From a virus: a stretch of 64,000 nucleotides of DNA. Below the pieces are notes generated by a model. That model was not told the origin of the DNA and ran no database searches. It saw nothing but the letters and a program-made list of their open reading frames with translations. The stretch lies in the IMG/VR virus record IMGVR_UViG_3300045988_088815, positions 58,691 through 122,690 of that record; one strand, given 5' to 3'. The position numbers were made by a program, and so were the translations under genes. Of this stretch, positions 3,186-58,810 are shown piece after piece (position 1 is the first letter of the stretch; every line of letters starts with the position of its first letter).

Positions 3186-4322
3186 ATGATTTCATACAAG
3201 TACAAGCTATATCGGACGAAGAAGACGAAGCATTTGGATAAGATGCTCCGTGAGGCTTGCTATGTTTGGAATCACGCTCTTGCCTTGCAGAAGAGATATT
3301 ATAAGCTGTATCACAAGTACATTCCAAGATTTACTATGTATAAGCATTTCTCTAAGTGTTATAAACCAACATTGCTTAATTGTCAAACAGTTAGGGAGGT
3401 GTTGGATAGATTGGATATATCTTACAAGCGTTTCTTCAAGCATGATGCGAAGCGTCCACCAAAATTTAAGAAAGCAATAGAATTTGGTTCATTTGCCTTT
3501 CAACAAAATGGCTATTCCCTTAGTGGAAACGAGTTTGTGATAAACAAGATAAAGAAGTCATTTAAGTTCTCTCTGAGCCGTCCCTACGATGGTAAGGTCA
3601 AGAGGGTGTCGGTCAAGCGAAACAAGTTGGGCGAGTACTTTATCGTCCTTTGCTTAGACAAGCAAGCCGAGTCTTACGGAAAGTCACATGATGGTGCATC
3701 CGTGGGCATCGACTTTGGATTGAAGAAGTACATGACTTTGAGCGATGGGCGTGAGATTGATAATCCTCAGTTCCTTAAAACTGACTTGTTGGAGCTTAGA
3801 CGCAGGTCTCGCAACCTCTCGAAGTGCAAGAAGGGCAGCAATAACCGCAAGCGCAAGAAGCTGGAGTTGGAGCGATTGTATCAAAACATCGTGAACAAGC
3901 GTTCCGATTTCCAGTGGAAGATGGCGCATGAGTTGTGCAAGCGTTATGACTTGATTTGCTTGGAGGATTTGAACTTGGAGGGAATGAAGCGTAATTGGGG
4001 ACGCAAGATGTCTGACTTGGCTCATGGCGATTTCGTTGTGAAGTTGGAACACGTTGCGAAAAAATATGGCGTTCAGGTTCATAAGATTGACCGATTCTTC
4101 CCTTCGAGCCGCCTTTGTACTTGTGGTTATAAGAATGATAAGCTGTCATTGAGTGATAGGGTTTGGACTTGTCCTATTTGTGGTGCAGTTCATCCTAGAG
4201 ACCTCTTTGCAGCTGAGAATATACTTCGGCAGGGCATTGCCGAATTGGGTAGTGGTAGTAAGCCGTCCGAGCAATCGCAAGGGTGCAGCCACGTTAGTCA
4301 CCCAACAATTCCTTGCAAGTAG
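3186..4322 (+). CDS. tnpB: TnpB RNA-guided endonuclease (IS200/IS605 OrfB family)
   Basis: RuvC-I VGIDFGL, RuvC-II CLEDLNL, Zn ribbon CTCG..WTCPICG, RuvC-III HPRDLFAAENI; typical N-terminus YKYKLY. Confidence 0.9.
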   Translation: MISYKYKLYRTKKTKHLDKMLREACYVWNHALALQKRYYKLYHKYIPRFTMYKHFSKCYKPTLLNCQTVREVLDRLDISYKRFFKHDAKRPPKFKKAIEFGSFAFQQNGYSLSGNEFVINKIKKSFKFSLSRPYDGKVKRVSVKRNKLGEYFIVLCLDKQAESYGKSHDGASVGIDFGLKKYMTLSDGREIDNPQFLKTDLLELRRRSRNLSKCKKGSNNRKRKKLELERLYQNIVNKRSDFQWKMAHELCKRYDLICLEDLNLEGMKRNWGRKMSDLAHGDFVVKLEHVAKKYGVQVHKIDRFFPSSRLCTCGYKNDKLSLSDRVWTCPICGAVHPRDLFAAENILRQGIAELGSGSKPSEQSQGCSHVSHPTIPCK

Positions 4323-8870: not shown

Positions 8871-9653
8871 ATGAAGGAATTAAGAAAGAAAACATTTAAG
8901 AATGGTGTCGTGTATTGCCTTCAATTAGAAGATGGTTTCCTTGTTGAAACGACAGATACATTCTTGCCTTATTACACCAAAGATGCAATAGGCAGACATC
9001 AGAATAAGCTCGACAACAATGAGCTTGGCGACCGCACGGAACGTTGGATGATAGGAGTATCTACAATGAGTGGGTGTCCAGTAAGATGCAAGTTCTGTGC
9101 TACAGGCAACATGAAACGTTATCGCAATCTTACGGCAGAAGAAATTGTTGAACAGGTTGAATTTGCCATCAACAAGGCAGGTGCTGACCCAAGCAAAGCA
9201 AAAGAGTTTAAGATTAACTATACTCGTATGGGCGAGCCATTCCTCAATATTGATGCAGTCAAGGATGCTATCCGCATTATTACTGAGAAATACCCAAATA
9301 CTCATCATTACGTATCAACGATTGGCATTAAGGGAAGCGATTTCTCTTTCATTAAGGGAAATATTACGTTACAGATTAGCTTACATTCATTTGATGATGA
9401 CAAGCGTAATTGGTTGATTCCTTACAAGAACAAGATGACTATTCAAGAGTTAGGTCAGATTCGCACAGAAAGCAATCTGAAGACTACAATCAATCTTACA
9501 CTTGTTGACACTTCCGATTTTGATGCAGAAAAGCTGAAAAAATGGTTTGATAAGGAGCATTTCTTCGTGAAGTTGTCTCCTATTAATGTGAATAACATAT
9601 CAGAGAAAAATCACCTCGGCAATGGTGTTGTAGAAGGAATTAATTTAGTATGA
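8871..9653 (+). CDS. RlmN/Cfr-like (class A) radical-SAM methylase core, lacking the C-terminal Cys loop
   Basis: SGCPVRCKFCATG cluster loop (C69/C73/C76), RMGEPFLN, VSTIG, LQISLHSFDDDKRNWLIP and KLSPINVN, all colinear with RlmN. Confidence 0.75.
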   Translation: MKELRKKTFKNGVVYCLQLEDGFLVETTDTFLPYYTKDAIGRHQNKLDNNELGDRTERWMIGVSTMSGCPVRCKFCATGNMKRYRNLTAEEIVEQVEFAINKAGADPSKAKEFKINYTRMGEPFLNIDAVKDAIRIITEKYPNTHHYVSTIGIKGSDFSFIKGNITLQISLHSFDDDKRNWLIPYKNKMTIQELGQIRTESNLKTTINLTLVDTSDFDAEKLKKWFDKEHFFVKLSPINVNNISEKNHLGNGVVEGINLV

Positions 9654-10417
9654 AAAAGGGTATTTTCAGATATAGAATTATCACAAATCTGAATTGCAAC
9701 ATGAACGAAAGTACAGGAGTAAACGGAAATTGTTACTTCTGCTACCAAAAGTTTAAGTCACCATTGCGACTGGATTGTGATAAGATGGAGGAAACTTTGA
9801 AGAAGGTTGGTGTTCTGAAAAGAGCAACTATCATGGGAGGCGAAAGCTTGCTCAATCCAGATTTGGTAAAGATTGTAAAGATAGTCAGCAACTATACATC
9901 TGATGGTATCTGTCTTGTTACAAATGGAATACTGCTTAATGAGGACATCATCGTTGCATTGAAAGATGCCGGATTAACTGAGGTTGCTATCAGCGTGTCT
10001 TCTATCGAACAGTACGAAAGACGTAGAGATATGGCACTTCTGTGTAAGGAGATTATTCCAAACACAAGAATAAACATTCCTAAGTGCAAGGAAAGTTTGA
10101 ATCCACAACTACTGAAAACAATACTATCAGATGGTTTCTATAGCATTGTATGCGAAGATTTACAGGCAAGGTATGGTGAGATAAGACTCCCAGATGGTTC
10201 TGTAAAGGTTGGTGATGACGGATATGGATTCTATGATTACAAGTGGAATGGACATACATTTGGAGTATTTGGCAATTATGGGAAGTACAACAGAAGCGAT
10301 ATTATCATAACTCCTCTTGGAAATTTCTGTGATTGGGAAAAGTATTGCAAGGCCGTTAAGAACAATGAGCTTGTAAGAAGAAATAATCATATTGATGATG
10401 ACAAAATTGTGCATTGA
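9650..10417 (+). CDS. radical-SAM protein with atypical CX11CX2C cluster motif
   Basis: NCNMNESTGVNGNCYFC, IMGGESLLNP (GGE motif), LVTNG; ATGA-coupled to the upstream gene. Confidence 0.65.
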   Translation: MKKGIFRYRIITNLNCNMNESTGVNGNCYFCYQKFKSPLRLDCDKMEETLKKVGVLKRATIMGGESLLNPDLVKIVKIVSNYTSDGICLVTNGILLNEDIIVALKDAGLTEVAISVSSIEQYERRRDMALLCKEIIPNTRINIPKCKESLNPQLLKTILSDGFYSIVCEDLQARYGEIRLPDGSVKVGDDGYGFYDYKWNGHTFGVFGNYGKYNRSDIIITPLGNFCDWEKYCKAVKNNELVRRNNHIDDDKIVH

Positions 10418-10838
10418 TTTCGGAAGTGGCTATAATCCAAAGGCTGGATATAAAACTTGCGATATAACAACCTTTCCACAATTGGATTTTCAGTATGATG
10501 GGAAAGATGAGATTGTCGGTCTTAGAGAAAAATCAGTAGATGTATTTTATCTAAGAAACGTTGTTCATCATATCCCAGATTTACAGAGAACTTTTATAAC
10601 CTTGAAGAAGTATCTGAAGGTAGGTGGGAAGCTAGTTATCATTGATTGCAATAAAGGTCATTATAAGACAAATGTATTTCTTGACAATTTATGGTATAGA
10701 TTTGTTGGCAATAACAACGAAATCTTTATCAGTAAACAGTATAGAGATTACATTAACGTTTTGATAAAGTTAGGTTTTAAGCAATTATATTATAAATCAT
10801 TTAAAGAAAAGGAGATTACTAAGTATGAATGCAATTAA
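10392..10838 (+). CDS. class I SAM-dependent methyltransferase
   Basis: motif I IDFGSG, LRNVVHHI, LKVGGKLVI. Confidence 0.7.
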   Translation: MMMTKLCIDFGSGYNPKAGYKTCDITTFPQLDFQYDGKDEIVGLREKSVDVFYLRNVVHHIPDLQRTFITLKKYLKVGGKLVIIDCNKGHYKTNVFLDNLWYRFVGNNNEIFISKQYRDYINVLIKLGFKQLYYKSFKEKEITKYECN

Positions 10839-10944
10839 GAATCAATTGGAAAAGATGGGCTACGATTATGCAGTAGCAATCGCAACAAAGGCTGAAATTG
10901 AGAATGGAGCTGCTTGTGGTCAGCTCGCTATTATTTGTGAGTAA
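10825..10944 (+). CDS. 39-aa peptide matching the RlmN/Cfr C-terminal catalytic-Cys loop
   Basis: manual ORF MNAIKNQLEKMGYDYAVAIATKAEIENGAACGQLAIICE; GAACGQLA matches the RlmN DAACGQLA loop; overlaps the methyltransferase stop. Confidence 0.55.
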   Translation: MNAIKNQLEKMGYDYAVAIATKAEIENGAACGQLAIICE

Positions 10945-12055: not shown

Positions 12056-12226
12056 ATGACAAGAGAAGAATTACAAAATAAACATGGCGATGCTATCTGT
12101 GAGTATTGTAACAAGAACATTATCTCAGAATATAACATCGGCATAGGTTGGCTTTGCGAAGGTCAGTATTGTGAGGAAGCACAAGATGGCTACGCAGCAG
12201 AAAATAACATAGAGTTGGAGGATTGA
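12056..12226 (+). CDS. small Cys-rich protein, paralog of 60113-60280
   Basis: manual ORF MTREELQNKHGDAICEYC..CEGQYCEE..IELED. Confidence 0.5.
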   Translation: MTREELQNKHGDAICEYCNKNIISEYNIGIGWLCEGQYCEEAQDGYAAENNIELED

Positions 12227-12228
12227 TT

Positions 12229-12570
12229 ATGATACAAAAACAGACATGGAAGGATGAAATCAGAATTTTAATAACTGATGAAGAAAATCATGGCTCTGTT
12301 CAAATATCCATTCCATTATATGTTAGTGATATTTTCGGCAAGGCTGATGCTCTAATATACGCTCTTTGGGTTGATGTTGTTTATAGAAGAAATGGTGTTG
12401 CACAACGCCTGTTACAACTCGCAGAACAACAGGCTAAGTTAAATGGGGTGAAGACAATCGGATTGGAATTTGATAAAGATGAATCTGATAGATTTGTTCT
12501 AGATTGGTATCTCCGTAGTGGTTATAAATCATTTGATAAGAAAAGTAATTTATTAATTAAAAAAATATAG
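12229..12570 (+). CDS. GNAT-family N-acetyltransferase
   Basis: motif A VYRRNGVAQRLL; about 113 aa. Confidence 0.6.
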   Translation: MIQKQTWKDEIRILITDEENHGSVQISIPLYVSDIFGKADALIYALWVDVVYRRNGVAQRLLQLAEQQAKLNGVKTIGLEFDKDESDRFVLDWYLRSGYKSFDKKSNLLIKKI

Positions 12571-37645: not shown

Positions 37646-37718
37646 GCTGCATTAGACAAGTGGTTAAGTCGCCAGCTTTTCACGCTGGTATTCAAAGGTT
37701 CGAATCCTTTATGCAGTA
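37646..37718 (+). tRNA. tRNA-Glu (anticodon TTC)
   Basis: hand-folded cloverleaf: acceptor GCTGCAT/ATGCAGT, anticodon arm CCAGC-TTTTCAC-GCTGG, T arm AAAGG-TTCGAAT-CCTTT. Confidence 0.8.
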
Positions 37719-37728
37719 CATACAAAAT

Positions 37729-37799
37729 TGCCCTATGGTGTAATGGCAACACTACAGTTTTTGGTTCTGTCATTAGTGGTTCGAATCCGCTTGGGGCAA
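37729..37799 (+). tRNA. tRNA-Gln (anticodon TTG)
   Basis: acceptor TGCCCTA/TGGGGCA, anticodon loop TTTTGGT, T loop TTCGAAT. Confidence 0.75.
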
Positions 37800-37829
37800 C
37801 AAGGTGGAATTGGTATATGTTCCACAAAA

Positions 37830-37914
37830 GGTGCGATATTCAAGCGGTTAAAGAAGATAGACTGTAAATCTATTCCCATTGTGGGTTCGGTGAGTTCAAA
37901 TCTCCCTTGCACCA
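37830..37914 (+). tRNA. tRNA-Tyr (anticodon GTA), long variable arm
   Basis: anticodon arm ATAGA-CTGTAAA-TCTAT, variable stem CCCA/TGGG, T loop TTCAAAT, acceptor GGTGCGA/TTGCACC. Confidence 0.8.
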
Positions 37915-37936
37915 CGAGAACTTTTGTCATAATACG

Positions 37937-38009
37937 AGGAATGTAGCTCAGTAGTAGAGCACTTGGTTTGGTAACTAAGGGGGCGTTGGTGCGAATCCAA
38001 TCATTCCTT
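37937..38009 (+). tRNA. non-canonical tRNA (Thr-GGT-like or Pro-TGG-like) with an 18-nt anticodon arm
   Basis: acceptor AGGAATG/CATTCCT, D arm GCTC-AGTAGTA-GAGC, T arm GTTGG-TGCGAAT-CCAAT; anticodon arm CTTGG-TTTGGTAA-CTAAG has an 8-nt loop. Confidence 0.55.
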
Positions 38010-38012
38010 TAC

Positions 38013-38084
38013 GCTTTCGTAGCTCAGTGGCAGAGCATAGGATTTTTAATCCTAGGGTCGAAGGTTCGAATCCTTCCGTTGGCA
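38013..38084 (+). tRNA. tRNA-Lys (anticodon TTT)
   Basis: anticodon arm TAGGA-TTTTTAA-TCCTA, T arm GAAGG-TTCGAAT-CCTTC; two U-U mismatches in the acceptor stem. Confidence 0.7.
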
Positions 38085-38266
38085 CAATGATACACAAGAA
38101 GAGAGCCGTGATGTTTGTTTTGTTGGAATCTCGGACATCTGTCAATGGGCAAACGTAGGATGCAGATGAGACGAATAAAGTTGTGAATAAGTCTATGAAC
38201 TAGGGGAACAAGCGGAATGGCTCTCTATTGTGCTTCATTTGATGGTTTAACGAAAAATTGAAGAAT

Positions 38267-58642: not shown

Positions 58643-58810
58643 ATGAGTAATAGACATTCGTATGAAAGATACGAAATACCAGACATTAAAGGTCGCAAAC
58701 ACGCAGTAGTTCTTTTTTCCGAAAATAGAAGTGTGGTTCATAACGGAATTCCTAGTACTACAATGGGATTTGTAGCTATTGATTTAGATGCAAATACTTA
58801 TAAAGATTAA
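58643..58810 (+). CDS. small hypothetical protein
   Basis: manual ORF, 55 aa. Confidence 0.4.
   Translation: MSNRHSYERYEIPDIKGRKHAVVLFSENRSVVHNGIPSTTMGFVAIDLDANTYKD

Follow-up and report, generated by a model that had tools for sequence, protein, structure and literature searches.

A stretch of 64,000 nucleotides (nt) of viral DNA, positions 58,691 to 122,690 of IMG/VR record IMGVR_UViG_3300045988_088815 (hereafter the window), carries an open reading frame (ORF) of a crAss-like phage, ORF i, which encodes a protein of 260 amino acids with the motif SGC69PVRC73KFC76ATG. Comparisons of sequence and predicted structure identify the product of ORF i as the putative large subunit, or core, of a two-piece radical S-adenosylmethionine (SAM) enzyme of the RlmN/Cfr type (class A methylase). 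The hallmark of class A radical SAM methylases is a pair of conserved cysteines in a single chain; RlmN and Cfr are, to our knowledge, the only such enzymes to have been studied. The phage core is cut short at both termini and has neither of the mechanistic cysteines in cis: a glycine occupies the position of the second cysteine, and the loop with the methyl-carrier cysteine is encoded separately, on a peptide of 39 amino acids. The phage gene probably performs RlmN-style chemistry via a modified route, in which the enzyme turns over and the acceptor is not recognized in the way RlmN recognizes rRNA and tRNA. A literature search found no paper that deals with RlmN-like enzymes of phages, with split ones or with ones that lack Cys118.

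ORF i heads a tightly packed operon, in which it is followed by genes for a second radical SAM protein (rSAM2), a methyltransferase and the 39-residue peptide. The features of the operon, all on the + strand, are the following:

8871..9653, +: core subunit (260 amino acids), with a predicted β′1–3 sheet extension and radical SAM (β/α)6 barrel of the RlmN/Cfr type
8946..8957, +: strand β′3, Glu26-Thr-Thr-Asp29; Glu26 corresponds to RlmN E105 and Cfr E91, and Asp29 is the proposed replacement general base
8955–8957, +: codon of Asp29, on strand β′3
8967..9041, +: clade-specific insert, residues ~33–57, between β′3 and β1, a gap relative to RlmN in the MAFFT alignment
9054..9056, +: codon of Gly62, at the position of RlmN Cys118 and Cfr Cys105; the glycine is kept clade-wide
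9075..9098, +: Cys69-x3-Cys73-x2-Cys76, [4Fe-4S] cluster motif, invariant in alignments A1–A4
9650..10417, +: rSAM2 (255 amino acids), a MoaA/twitch-like radical SAM protein, whose start overlaps the core stop (ATGA)
10392..10838, +: small class I SAM-dependent methyltransferase (148 amino acids; Pfam Methyltransf_11; phrog_5399, 7.5e-27), the true start of which may be the ATG at 10395 or 10398
10825..10944, +: small subunit of 39 amino acids, MNAIKNQLEKMGYDYAVAIATKAEIENGAACGQLAIICE, which corresponds to the C-terminal helix, β7 strand and 'AACGQ' loop of RlmN in detached form
10915–10917, +: Cys31 of the peptide, corresponding to RlmN C355
10936–10938, +: Cys38 of the peptide, not conserved

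Relationship of the core to RlmN and Cfr

The core belongs to the radical SAM enzymes: it has Cys69, Cys73 and Cys76, is matched by Pfam Radical_SAM with an E value of 1e-11, and its MGEP, STIG and SLHS motifs align. The best NCBIfam match is RlmN (TIGR00048, E value 2e-22), with residues 56–244 of the protein placed on positions 102–299 of the 355-position profile. However, the score of 79.6 bits is far under the cut-off of 290, and the Cfr models, which score 54–57 bits relative to thresholds of 468–550 bits, do not reach the curated family threshold. A phmmer search of PDB sequences with the core returns RlmN and Cfr exclusively. The core concatenated with the peptide was modelled by AlphaFold2 (AF2) from an alignment of 80 sequences. 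The model has a predicted local distance difference test score (pLDDT) of 91.4 and a predicted template modelling score (pTM) of 0.91, with low confidence at the junction of the core and peptide. Its top eight Foldseek matches are all RlmN or Cfr (E values 9e-16 to 4e-9, TMq 0.58–0.70), and the next-ranked is viperin (1e-4). RlmN and Cfr are the best and sole strong matches of the phage core in both sequence and fold. With the structures of these enzymes (PDB 3RFA, 5HR7, 6FZ6, 9P0P) the phage system shares the β′ sheet extension followed by the radical SAM barrel, the CX3CX2C motif, the SAM-binding motifs MGEP, STxG and SLH, the invariant glutamate (E105/E91), and the 'AACGQ' methyl-carrier loop. 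The net charge and isoelectric point (pI) do not discriminate the core from RlmN (Clade A has a median pI of 8.2 and a range of 5.5–9.2).

The phage core differs from RlmN and Cfr at both termini and at the position of the second cysteine. In a MAFFT alignment of phage proteins with the authentic RlmN of E. coli (b2517), S. aureus and Tsukamurella, the core starts at RlmN residue ~83, where the β′ sheet extension begins, and ends at about residue 327, so that the C355 loop lies outside the core chain. Both the alignment and the start of the profile match, at position 102 of 355, indicate that the N-terminal HhH2 RNA-binding domain is absent. Seven residues before the cluster motif, where the second mechanistic cysteine is expected, the core has Gly62. 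MAFFT aligns a glycine with Cys118 in each of the four phage homologues that were compared (MIGVS, where RlmN has TLCVS), and phmmer places Gly62 in the same column of the PDB sequences ('erwmiGvstmsgc' versus 'drttvCvscqvgc' in 6fz6), where C118A mutants read 'dratlAvssqvgc'. A previous interpretation made from the letters of the window (the sequence-only reading) had set the start of the core about 80 residues into RlmN, without the N-terminal domain, and had proposed the replacement of the resolving Cys118 by glycine; the alignments agree with it on both points and place no conserved cysteine of the core at the C118-equivalent position. Its statement that the second cysteine of the peptide is the only other nearby thiol is incorrect, since the core also contains Cys16, which is not conserved; no cysteine besides the three cluster ligands is conserved in the alignments of clade cores. 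The phage proteins have an insert of ~25 residues after β′3 relative to RlmN, which the AF2 model shows as a helix (residues 34–42) and a loop of lower pLDDT. Furthermore, the genomic context of the phage module is unrelated to ribosome or tRNA genes. Because the N-terminal domain, Cys118 and a carrier cysteine in cis are all missing, and the curated score threshold is not reached, the labels 'RlmN' and '23S rRNA methyltransferase' are not justified for this phage gene and those like it.

The residue at position −7 from the cluster motif is glycine across ~60 distinct members of the clade, with the exceptions of asparagine (P0130) and alanine (P0205). Among crAss-like relatives, the core gene has a median ratio of nonsynonymous to synonymous substitution rates (dN/dS) of 0.02 and the peptide gene one of 0.05; these low values indicate that both genes are kept by purifying selection. 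Together with the clade-wide glycine, they argue that the loss of Cys118 is not a chance event.

The detached peptide

The 39-residue peptide aligns in MAFFT to RlmN residues 328–360, including AACGQL, with Cys31 as the equivalent of C355. The methyl-carrier loop, which is part of the same chain in RlmN and Cfr, is thus provided in trans, and the detached cysteine-bearing peptide noticed in the sequence-only reading does exist. The peptide alone matches the C-terminal region of the hidden Markov model (HMM) of a cellular RlmN-like clade, described below, with an E value of 1e-8; a phmmer search of the PDB with the peptide alone gave no match, the query being too short. In the AF2 concatenation, the peptide forms a helix, strand, loop and helix at pLDDT 72–88. 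This model, the natural fusion P0125, and the loci L164 and L105, in which the peptide gene is upstream of the core gene, predict that the core and peptide work together. A joining of the two by frameshift or read-through is excluded by gene spacings from −22 to +60 nt in various frames, by the 1172-nt insert in the window, and by peptides encoded upstream of the core. With the methyl-carrier loop on a small protein of its own, the phage enzyme would be a naturally occurring two-component system in which to dissect the ping-pong mechanism.

The second cysteine of the peptide is variable. Relatives with a core 80–100% identical to that of the window have peptides ending in IICE, IITD, IIVETE, IIAE, IIGE and IIEG; Cys38 is exchanged for T, V, A, G or E even where the core is 80–93% identical. 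More distant tails (SILENQE, SMIMEE) have no second cysteine, and it is missing from the peptides of Kehishuvirus, Moorella phage, Arno18 and D479, while in some jumbo-phage peptides it is at another position (AACGQMCLV). The proposal of the sequence-only reading that the peptide may supply both cysteines is therefore unsupported: a mechanistic residue would be conserved, and the second cysteine is absent from most homologous peptides and shifted in others. In Vibrio phage D479 (L090 3800–4081), the small ORF consists of two tandem copies of the cysteine-bearing peptide (...AGAACGQMAILDE VKEAGFDAGLAIATDAEVDAGAACGQMAILEDA), the single such case among ~60 loci.

Distribution and arrangement of the split module

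The closest phage in GenBank is the crAss-like Kehishuvirus 'tikkala', with 71% amino acid identity over ORF i; a megablast search of GenBank phages with the locus found nothing beyond 55-nt matches. The two-piece enzyme is conserved in many tailed phages. The pair of core and small ORF is present in phages far apart from one another, namely Kehishuvirus, Moorella phage MTATph1, Vibrio phage D479, and Pectobacterium phages Arno18 and Wc4, and a core with 35.5% amino acid identity was found in Yersinia phage P778. The core is encoded in ~270 further loci from IMG/VR and genome collections, and the peptide gene is beside it in nearly all of the ~130 that were checked. Searches for loci with single proteins retrieved one locus for P0153 and none for P0131, and the contigs of P0199 and P0152 are too short to show neighbouring genes.

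The peptide genes of the clade encode 39–60 amino acids and are usually located 9–60 nt downstream of the core gene. In some loci, the junction contains inserts of 263–1900 nt: a GIY-YIG gene in L098 and L100, small ORFs in L097, L169 and Arno18, or other radical SAM genes. The order is inverted in L164 and L105, and in the fusion P0125, present on two contigs (L092 44–991 and L093), the peptide forms the N-terminus of the core. The fusion is a circular permutation relative to RlmN, and a gene for a 239-residue radical SAM protein follows it. In L042, L067 and L008, the cores of which are 93–100% identical to that of the window, the 3′ end of the core gene, the rSAM2–methyltransferase cassette and/or the peptide gene are deleted or replaced, which indicates that the module is dispensable in some genomes. 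A SPFH/Band_7 gene lies directly upstream of the core gene in the crAss-like relatives L174 and L175 (2197–2997) and one gene away from it in L001 (2455–3672); some GenBank records call the RlmN-like gene 'prohibitin family protein'. The core of L174 carries an N-terminal HNH_3 domain (P0004, 438 amino acids).

In phages, the insertion of a homing endonuclease gene is known to break up enzymes into 'genes in pieces', an example being the split NrdA of Aeromonas phage Aeh1. The core and peptide resemble these in being adjacent ORFs colinear with an unsplit homologue, with foreign or mobile genes at the junction in some genomes, among them the GIY-YIG gene, and in the HNH domain fused to one core. 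Since the junction is a recurrent insertion site, a gene in pieces is the simplest explanation of the split. However, the split of the phage module is ancient, fixed across the whole clade and tolerant of order inversion and N-terminal fusion, and the small piece itself bears the reactive residue. E. coli GrcA/YfiD and phage T4 Y06I are radical-cofactor 'spare part' proteins for pyruvate formate-lyase. Like the peptide, they are short separate proteins that bear the loop at the C-terminus of a radical enzyme on which catalysis depends, and they dock on a core. Unlike it, they belong to the glycyl radical family and mend a damaged host enzyme, whereas the phage encodes both core and loop.

Replacement of Cys118 in the wider superfamily

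A search of the superfamily at the level of 50% representatives gave 4506 matches, which include several N-terminally truncated clades. One phage clade has both cysteines in one chain (VICCSTQSGC ... GGGCGQLW) and no N-terminal domain; its member in Stenotrophomonas phage ANB28 (L088 2977–3936) is encoded amid a tRNA gene cluster. The nearest relatives of the phage proteins, a large clade of bacterial and archaeal mini RlmN-like proteins of ~310 amino acids, have isoleucine, valine or threonine at −7, with the motif VLIVSTLYGCPVGCRFCDAG ... IGSNCGQ, and just four conserved cysteine columns, the cluster ligands and the in-chain IGSNCGQ. The window protein scores 197 bits with the profile of the cellular clade, 168 with that of the two-cysteine phage clade and 142 with canonical RlmN, values that are approximate because the profiles differ in depth. 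Proteins of the cellular clade resemble the phage core in having no N-terminal domain, no cysteine at −7, and an acidic residue on β′3 three residues after the invariant glutamate (Glu+3). They differ in being a single chain with the carrier cysteine in cis and in having isoleucine rather than glycine at −7. Within a conserved operon, their genes (L202–L255) follow those for an isochorismatase-family protein and a thioredoxin-reductase-like flavoprotein, and the clade has no NCBIfam family of its own. Predicted RlmN-like enzymes without Cys118 and the N-terminal domain are common, and a large phage and cellular branch appears to manage without the second cysteine and the RNA-binding domain.

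Covariation with position −7 was analysed in the N-terminal regions of 369 superfamily sequences, reduced to 97 representatives. The Glu+3 position on β′3 (position 29) is aspartate or glutamate in 46 of the 66 representatives without a cysteine at −7, compared with three of the 31 that have it, in which leucine is usual. Five further representatives without the cysteine, from the subclade of Arno18 and jumbo phages, have serine, alanine or asparagine at position 29 and a cysteine at position 31 of the same strand (TATCLP versus TDTFLP). Current mechanistic work regards Cys118 as the general base: by abstracting the proton from C2 or C8, it initiates the breakdown of the crosslink by radical fragmentation (PMC9692996; PMC13001441). 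The β′ strands pack against β1, the strand with Cys118, and support the C-terminal loop (PMC13001441), and the E91A mutant of Cfr is inactive (PMC2836569). From the covariation of the loss of Cys118 with an acidic residue on β′3, we infer that the base function has moved to this strand, to Asp29 in the window, which favours turnover over a dead-end adduct. Aspartate or glutamate on β′3, or the relocated cysteine, is the likely compensating residue, and its mutation would directly test whether the crosslink is resolved by a 'general base', as the current model holds.

The rSAM2 and methyltransferase cassette

The module has two forms, a short one of core and peptide, and a long one of core, rSAM2, methyltransferase and peptide, to which the window belongs. 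In about one half of the close relatives, the peptide gene directly follows the core gene, and the remainder have the same 1172-nt insert of rSAM2 and methyltransferase. The order of the long form is kept in two of the most distant rSAM2 homologues (39–43% identity) and in 12 loci from contigs binned as Clostridia or Bacilli. The rSAM2 gene lies between core and peptide in every locus of the rSAM2 family inspected, and the methyltransferase gene travels with it. A recent random insertion of the cassette is ruled out by its same exact position down to 39% identity.

The AF2 model of rSAM2 has a pLDDT of 91.5, and its best Foldseek match is MoaA (5e-9), followed by twitch dehydrogenases and viperin-like enzymes. 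The cluster motif is unusual, C16-x11-C28-x2-C31; the spacing in homologues of rSAM2 is C-x5-C-x2-C in L192 and the canonical C-x3-C-x2-C in L105. Additional cysteines at positions 88, 168 and 233 are invariant or nearly invariant. Genes for small MoaA-like radical SAM proteins are also next to the module in differently arranged loci (L105, L171, L092). A PADLOC search found no defence-system match for the core and peptide, and rSAM2 matches pVip over its generic N-terminal half only.

Gene neighbourhood and the acceptor

In 33 diverse loci, 112 ORFs lying no more than ~2.6 kb from the module were classified with Pfam; they include eight NAPRTase-family, eight NUDIX, five NMNAT-type, four NAD synthase, four nicotinamidase-type isochorismatase and two NAD kinase genes. 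Genes for the salvage of nicotinamide adenine dinucleotide (NAD+) of the NARP2 and Preiss–Handler types, for Nampt/PncB, NMNAT, NadE or PncA, are beside the module in 21 related loci. When the loci are clustered by core identity, NAD genes flank the module in 16 of the 51 clusters formed at 90% and in 8 of the 18 formed at 70%. Examples are PncA::PncB-Nudix-core-rSAM2-MT-peptide-NadE in L187 (MT, methyltransferase), NadE-core-peptide-NMNAT::Nudix-NAD kinase in L185, and Nudix-Nampt-core-rSAM2-MT-peptide in L259. Loci embedded among such genes are L187, L185, L189, L259, L095–L103, L169, L171, L173, L181 and L194. For comparison, the NAD+ reconstitution pathway NARP2 is present in ~1.1% of phage genomes (bioRxiv 10.1101/2024.02.11.579819). 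No paper mentioning a radical SAM gene in NARP or NAD+ salvage clusters was found in the literature. The recurrent embedding hints that the module may take part in the metabolic counter-defence of phages, a role that has so far gone unnoticed.

The window contains five clustered tRNA genes (37646–38085): Glu-UUC with A37, Gln-UUG with G37, Tyr-GUA, Lys-UUU, and one at 37936–38010 for which ARAGORN gives a two-base anticodon. The relatives of the core that have been characterized all act on RNA, and it is the HhH2 domain that anchors the RNA in RlmN and Cfr (PMC13001441). Because the RNA-docking domain is missing, rSAM2 and the methyltransferase are encoded between the two pieces, and relatives are located in NAD+ salvage operons, a nucleotide-type metabolite, or an RNA recognized differently, may be considered a likelier acceptor than 23S A2503. 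The sequence-only reading had proposed a substrate other than 23S rRNA and tRNA A37, which is plausible in view of the absence of HhH2 and the NAD+ operons of relatives; its candidates, phage DNA and the phage tRNAs at 37.6–38.1 kb, are not indicated by any of the results.

Proposed mechanism and alternative explanations

The proposed enzyme is of the class A type, with two subunits, the carrier cysteine in trans, a relocated base other than cysteine, and turnover on an adenine-like acceptor; the probability assigned to this reading is about 0.5. Cys31 of the peptide would be methylated by one SAM, and a second SAM would be cleaved to the 5′-deoxyadenosyl radical, giving rise to peptide-S-CH2•. 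This radical would add to an sp2 carbon of the adenine-like acceptor. Asp29 would then accept the proton, the role of Cys118 in RlmN, the C–S bond would fragment, and the C-methylated product would leave; since this final step releases the product, the enzyme would turn over.

Several observations weigh against the proposal. The covariation of positions 29 and −7 (Fisher p 2e-10 for the 97 representatives) is calculated without phylogenetic correction, and it has exceptions: L117 has Ser29 and Phe31, and both the acidic residue and the cysteine are missing from a 'KIGVSL..YCFT' clade. It is from the strand order that Asp29 is expected to be close to the active site. NAD+ salvage genes have no match in the window or close relatives, so the NAD+ association may be regional rather than functional. 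A neutral split would leave unaccounted for that no unsplit member of the clade was found and that one ORF of D479 encodes two copies of the peptide.

The two D479 copies, and the clade-wide encoding of the cysteine loop on a separate gene, whatever the gene order, speak for a peptide that is consumed. The 39-residue protein would then be a stoichiometric methylene donor that, with no resolving residue present, ends attached to RNA, DNA or a nucleotide through a stable thioether, peptide-S-CH2-adenine. The core, free again, would reload with a fresh peptide after each reaction. Neither the core nor the peptide has a conserved second cysteine, and RlmN C118A and Cfr C105A do give stable crosslinks (PMC9692996; PMC13001441). 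However, the cellular sister clade lacks Cys118 and has its carrier cysteine in cis, so that dead-end crosslinks, which would make its members suicide enzymes, are unlikely there; moreover, an acidic residue covaries with the loss of Cys118, a natural fusion of peptide and core is known, and AF2 predicts that the strand of the peptide joins the barrel sheet in the manner of a subunit. Consumption of the peptide is therefore a possible but rather unlikely explanation. The covalent adduct suggested in the sequence-only reading stands on the separate peptide and the D479 tandem, and is opposed by the sister clade, the covariation and the fusion. A more specific version, held to be somewhat more doubtful still, is that the peptide is a diffusible single-use methylene donor, a 39-residue tag placed on adenine-containing targets such as host RNA and, in view of the NAD+ salvage neighbourhood of relatives, NAD+/ADP-ribose-derived metabolites or immune signals. 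If true, this would be a new kind of radical-SAM-driven peptide–nucleotide conjugation in phage–host conflict.

The module could also be an ordinary RlmN in two pieces, which forms 2-methyladenosine (m2A) at A37 of phage or host tRNA or at 23S A2503 and tunes translation, with the split and the missing domain being neutral. Hosts already have RlmN, and thus the A2503 and A37 positions are normally already methylated. RlmN and Cfr are the sole similar characterized enzymes, many of the carrier phages are tRNA-rich, the two-cysteine mini-RlmN clade occurs inside the tRNA cluster of phage ANB28, and the tRNA-Glu(UUC) of the window has A37, tRNA-Glu(UUC) being a known substrate of E. coli RlmN (PMC5130265). 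By contrast, the domain that anchors RNA is absent (PMC13001441), the score of the core is far under the RlmN equivalog cut-off, and the module is linked to rSAM2, the methyltransferase and NAD+ salvage genes rather than to tRNA genes, those of the window being 27 kb away. Conventional tRNA or rRNA methylation is a possible but rather unlikely function. An operon with a small peptide gene, two radical SAM genes and a methyltransferase gene resembles the loci of ribosomally synthesized and post-translationally modified peptides (RiPPs), in which case the peptide would be the final product; the core would modify its Cys31, joined in the long form by rSAM2 and the methyltransferase. The structure of rSAM2 distantly matches the RiPP maturases SuiB and SkfB; its best match, however, is MoaA and not a peptide maturase. 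The peptide shares homology with the C-terminal segment of the enzyme family itself and is highly conserved, not hypervariable; no RiPP recognition element (RRE), SPASM domain, protease or exporter was found nearby, and the core has no RRE or SPASM matches. A RiPP-like role is accordingly improbable. Least credible is a peptide that provides both the methyl carrier, Cys31, and the resolving residue, Cys38: the window peptide and some from jumbo phages (AACGQMC) do contain two cysteines, but Cys38 is not conserved and the second cysteine, where found, is elsewhere.

Other genes in the window

Three further genes of the window were annotated. Positions 1801–2526 encode a Dam-type N6-adenine DNA methyltransferase of the D12 class (6e-17), and positions 3186–4322 a TnpB/IS605 OrfB-like protein with a Cas12f-like TNB domain (Pfam 1.6e-25). 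A small GNAT acetyltransferase is encoded at 12223–12570.

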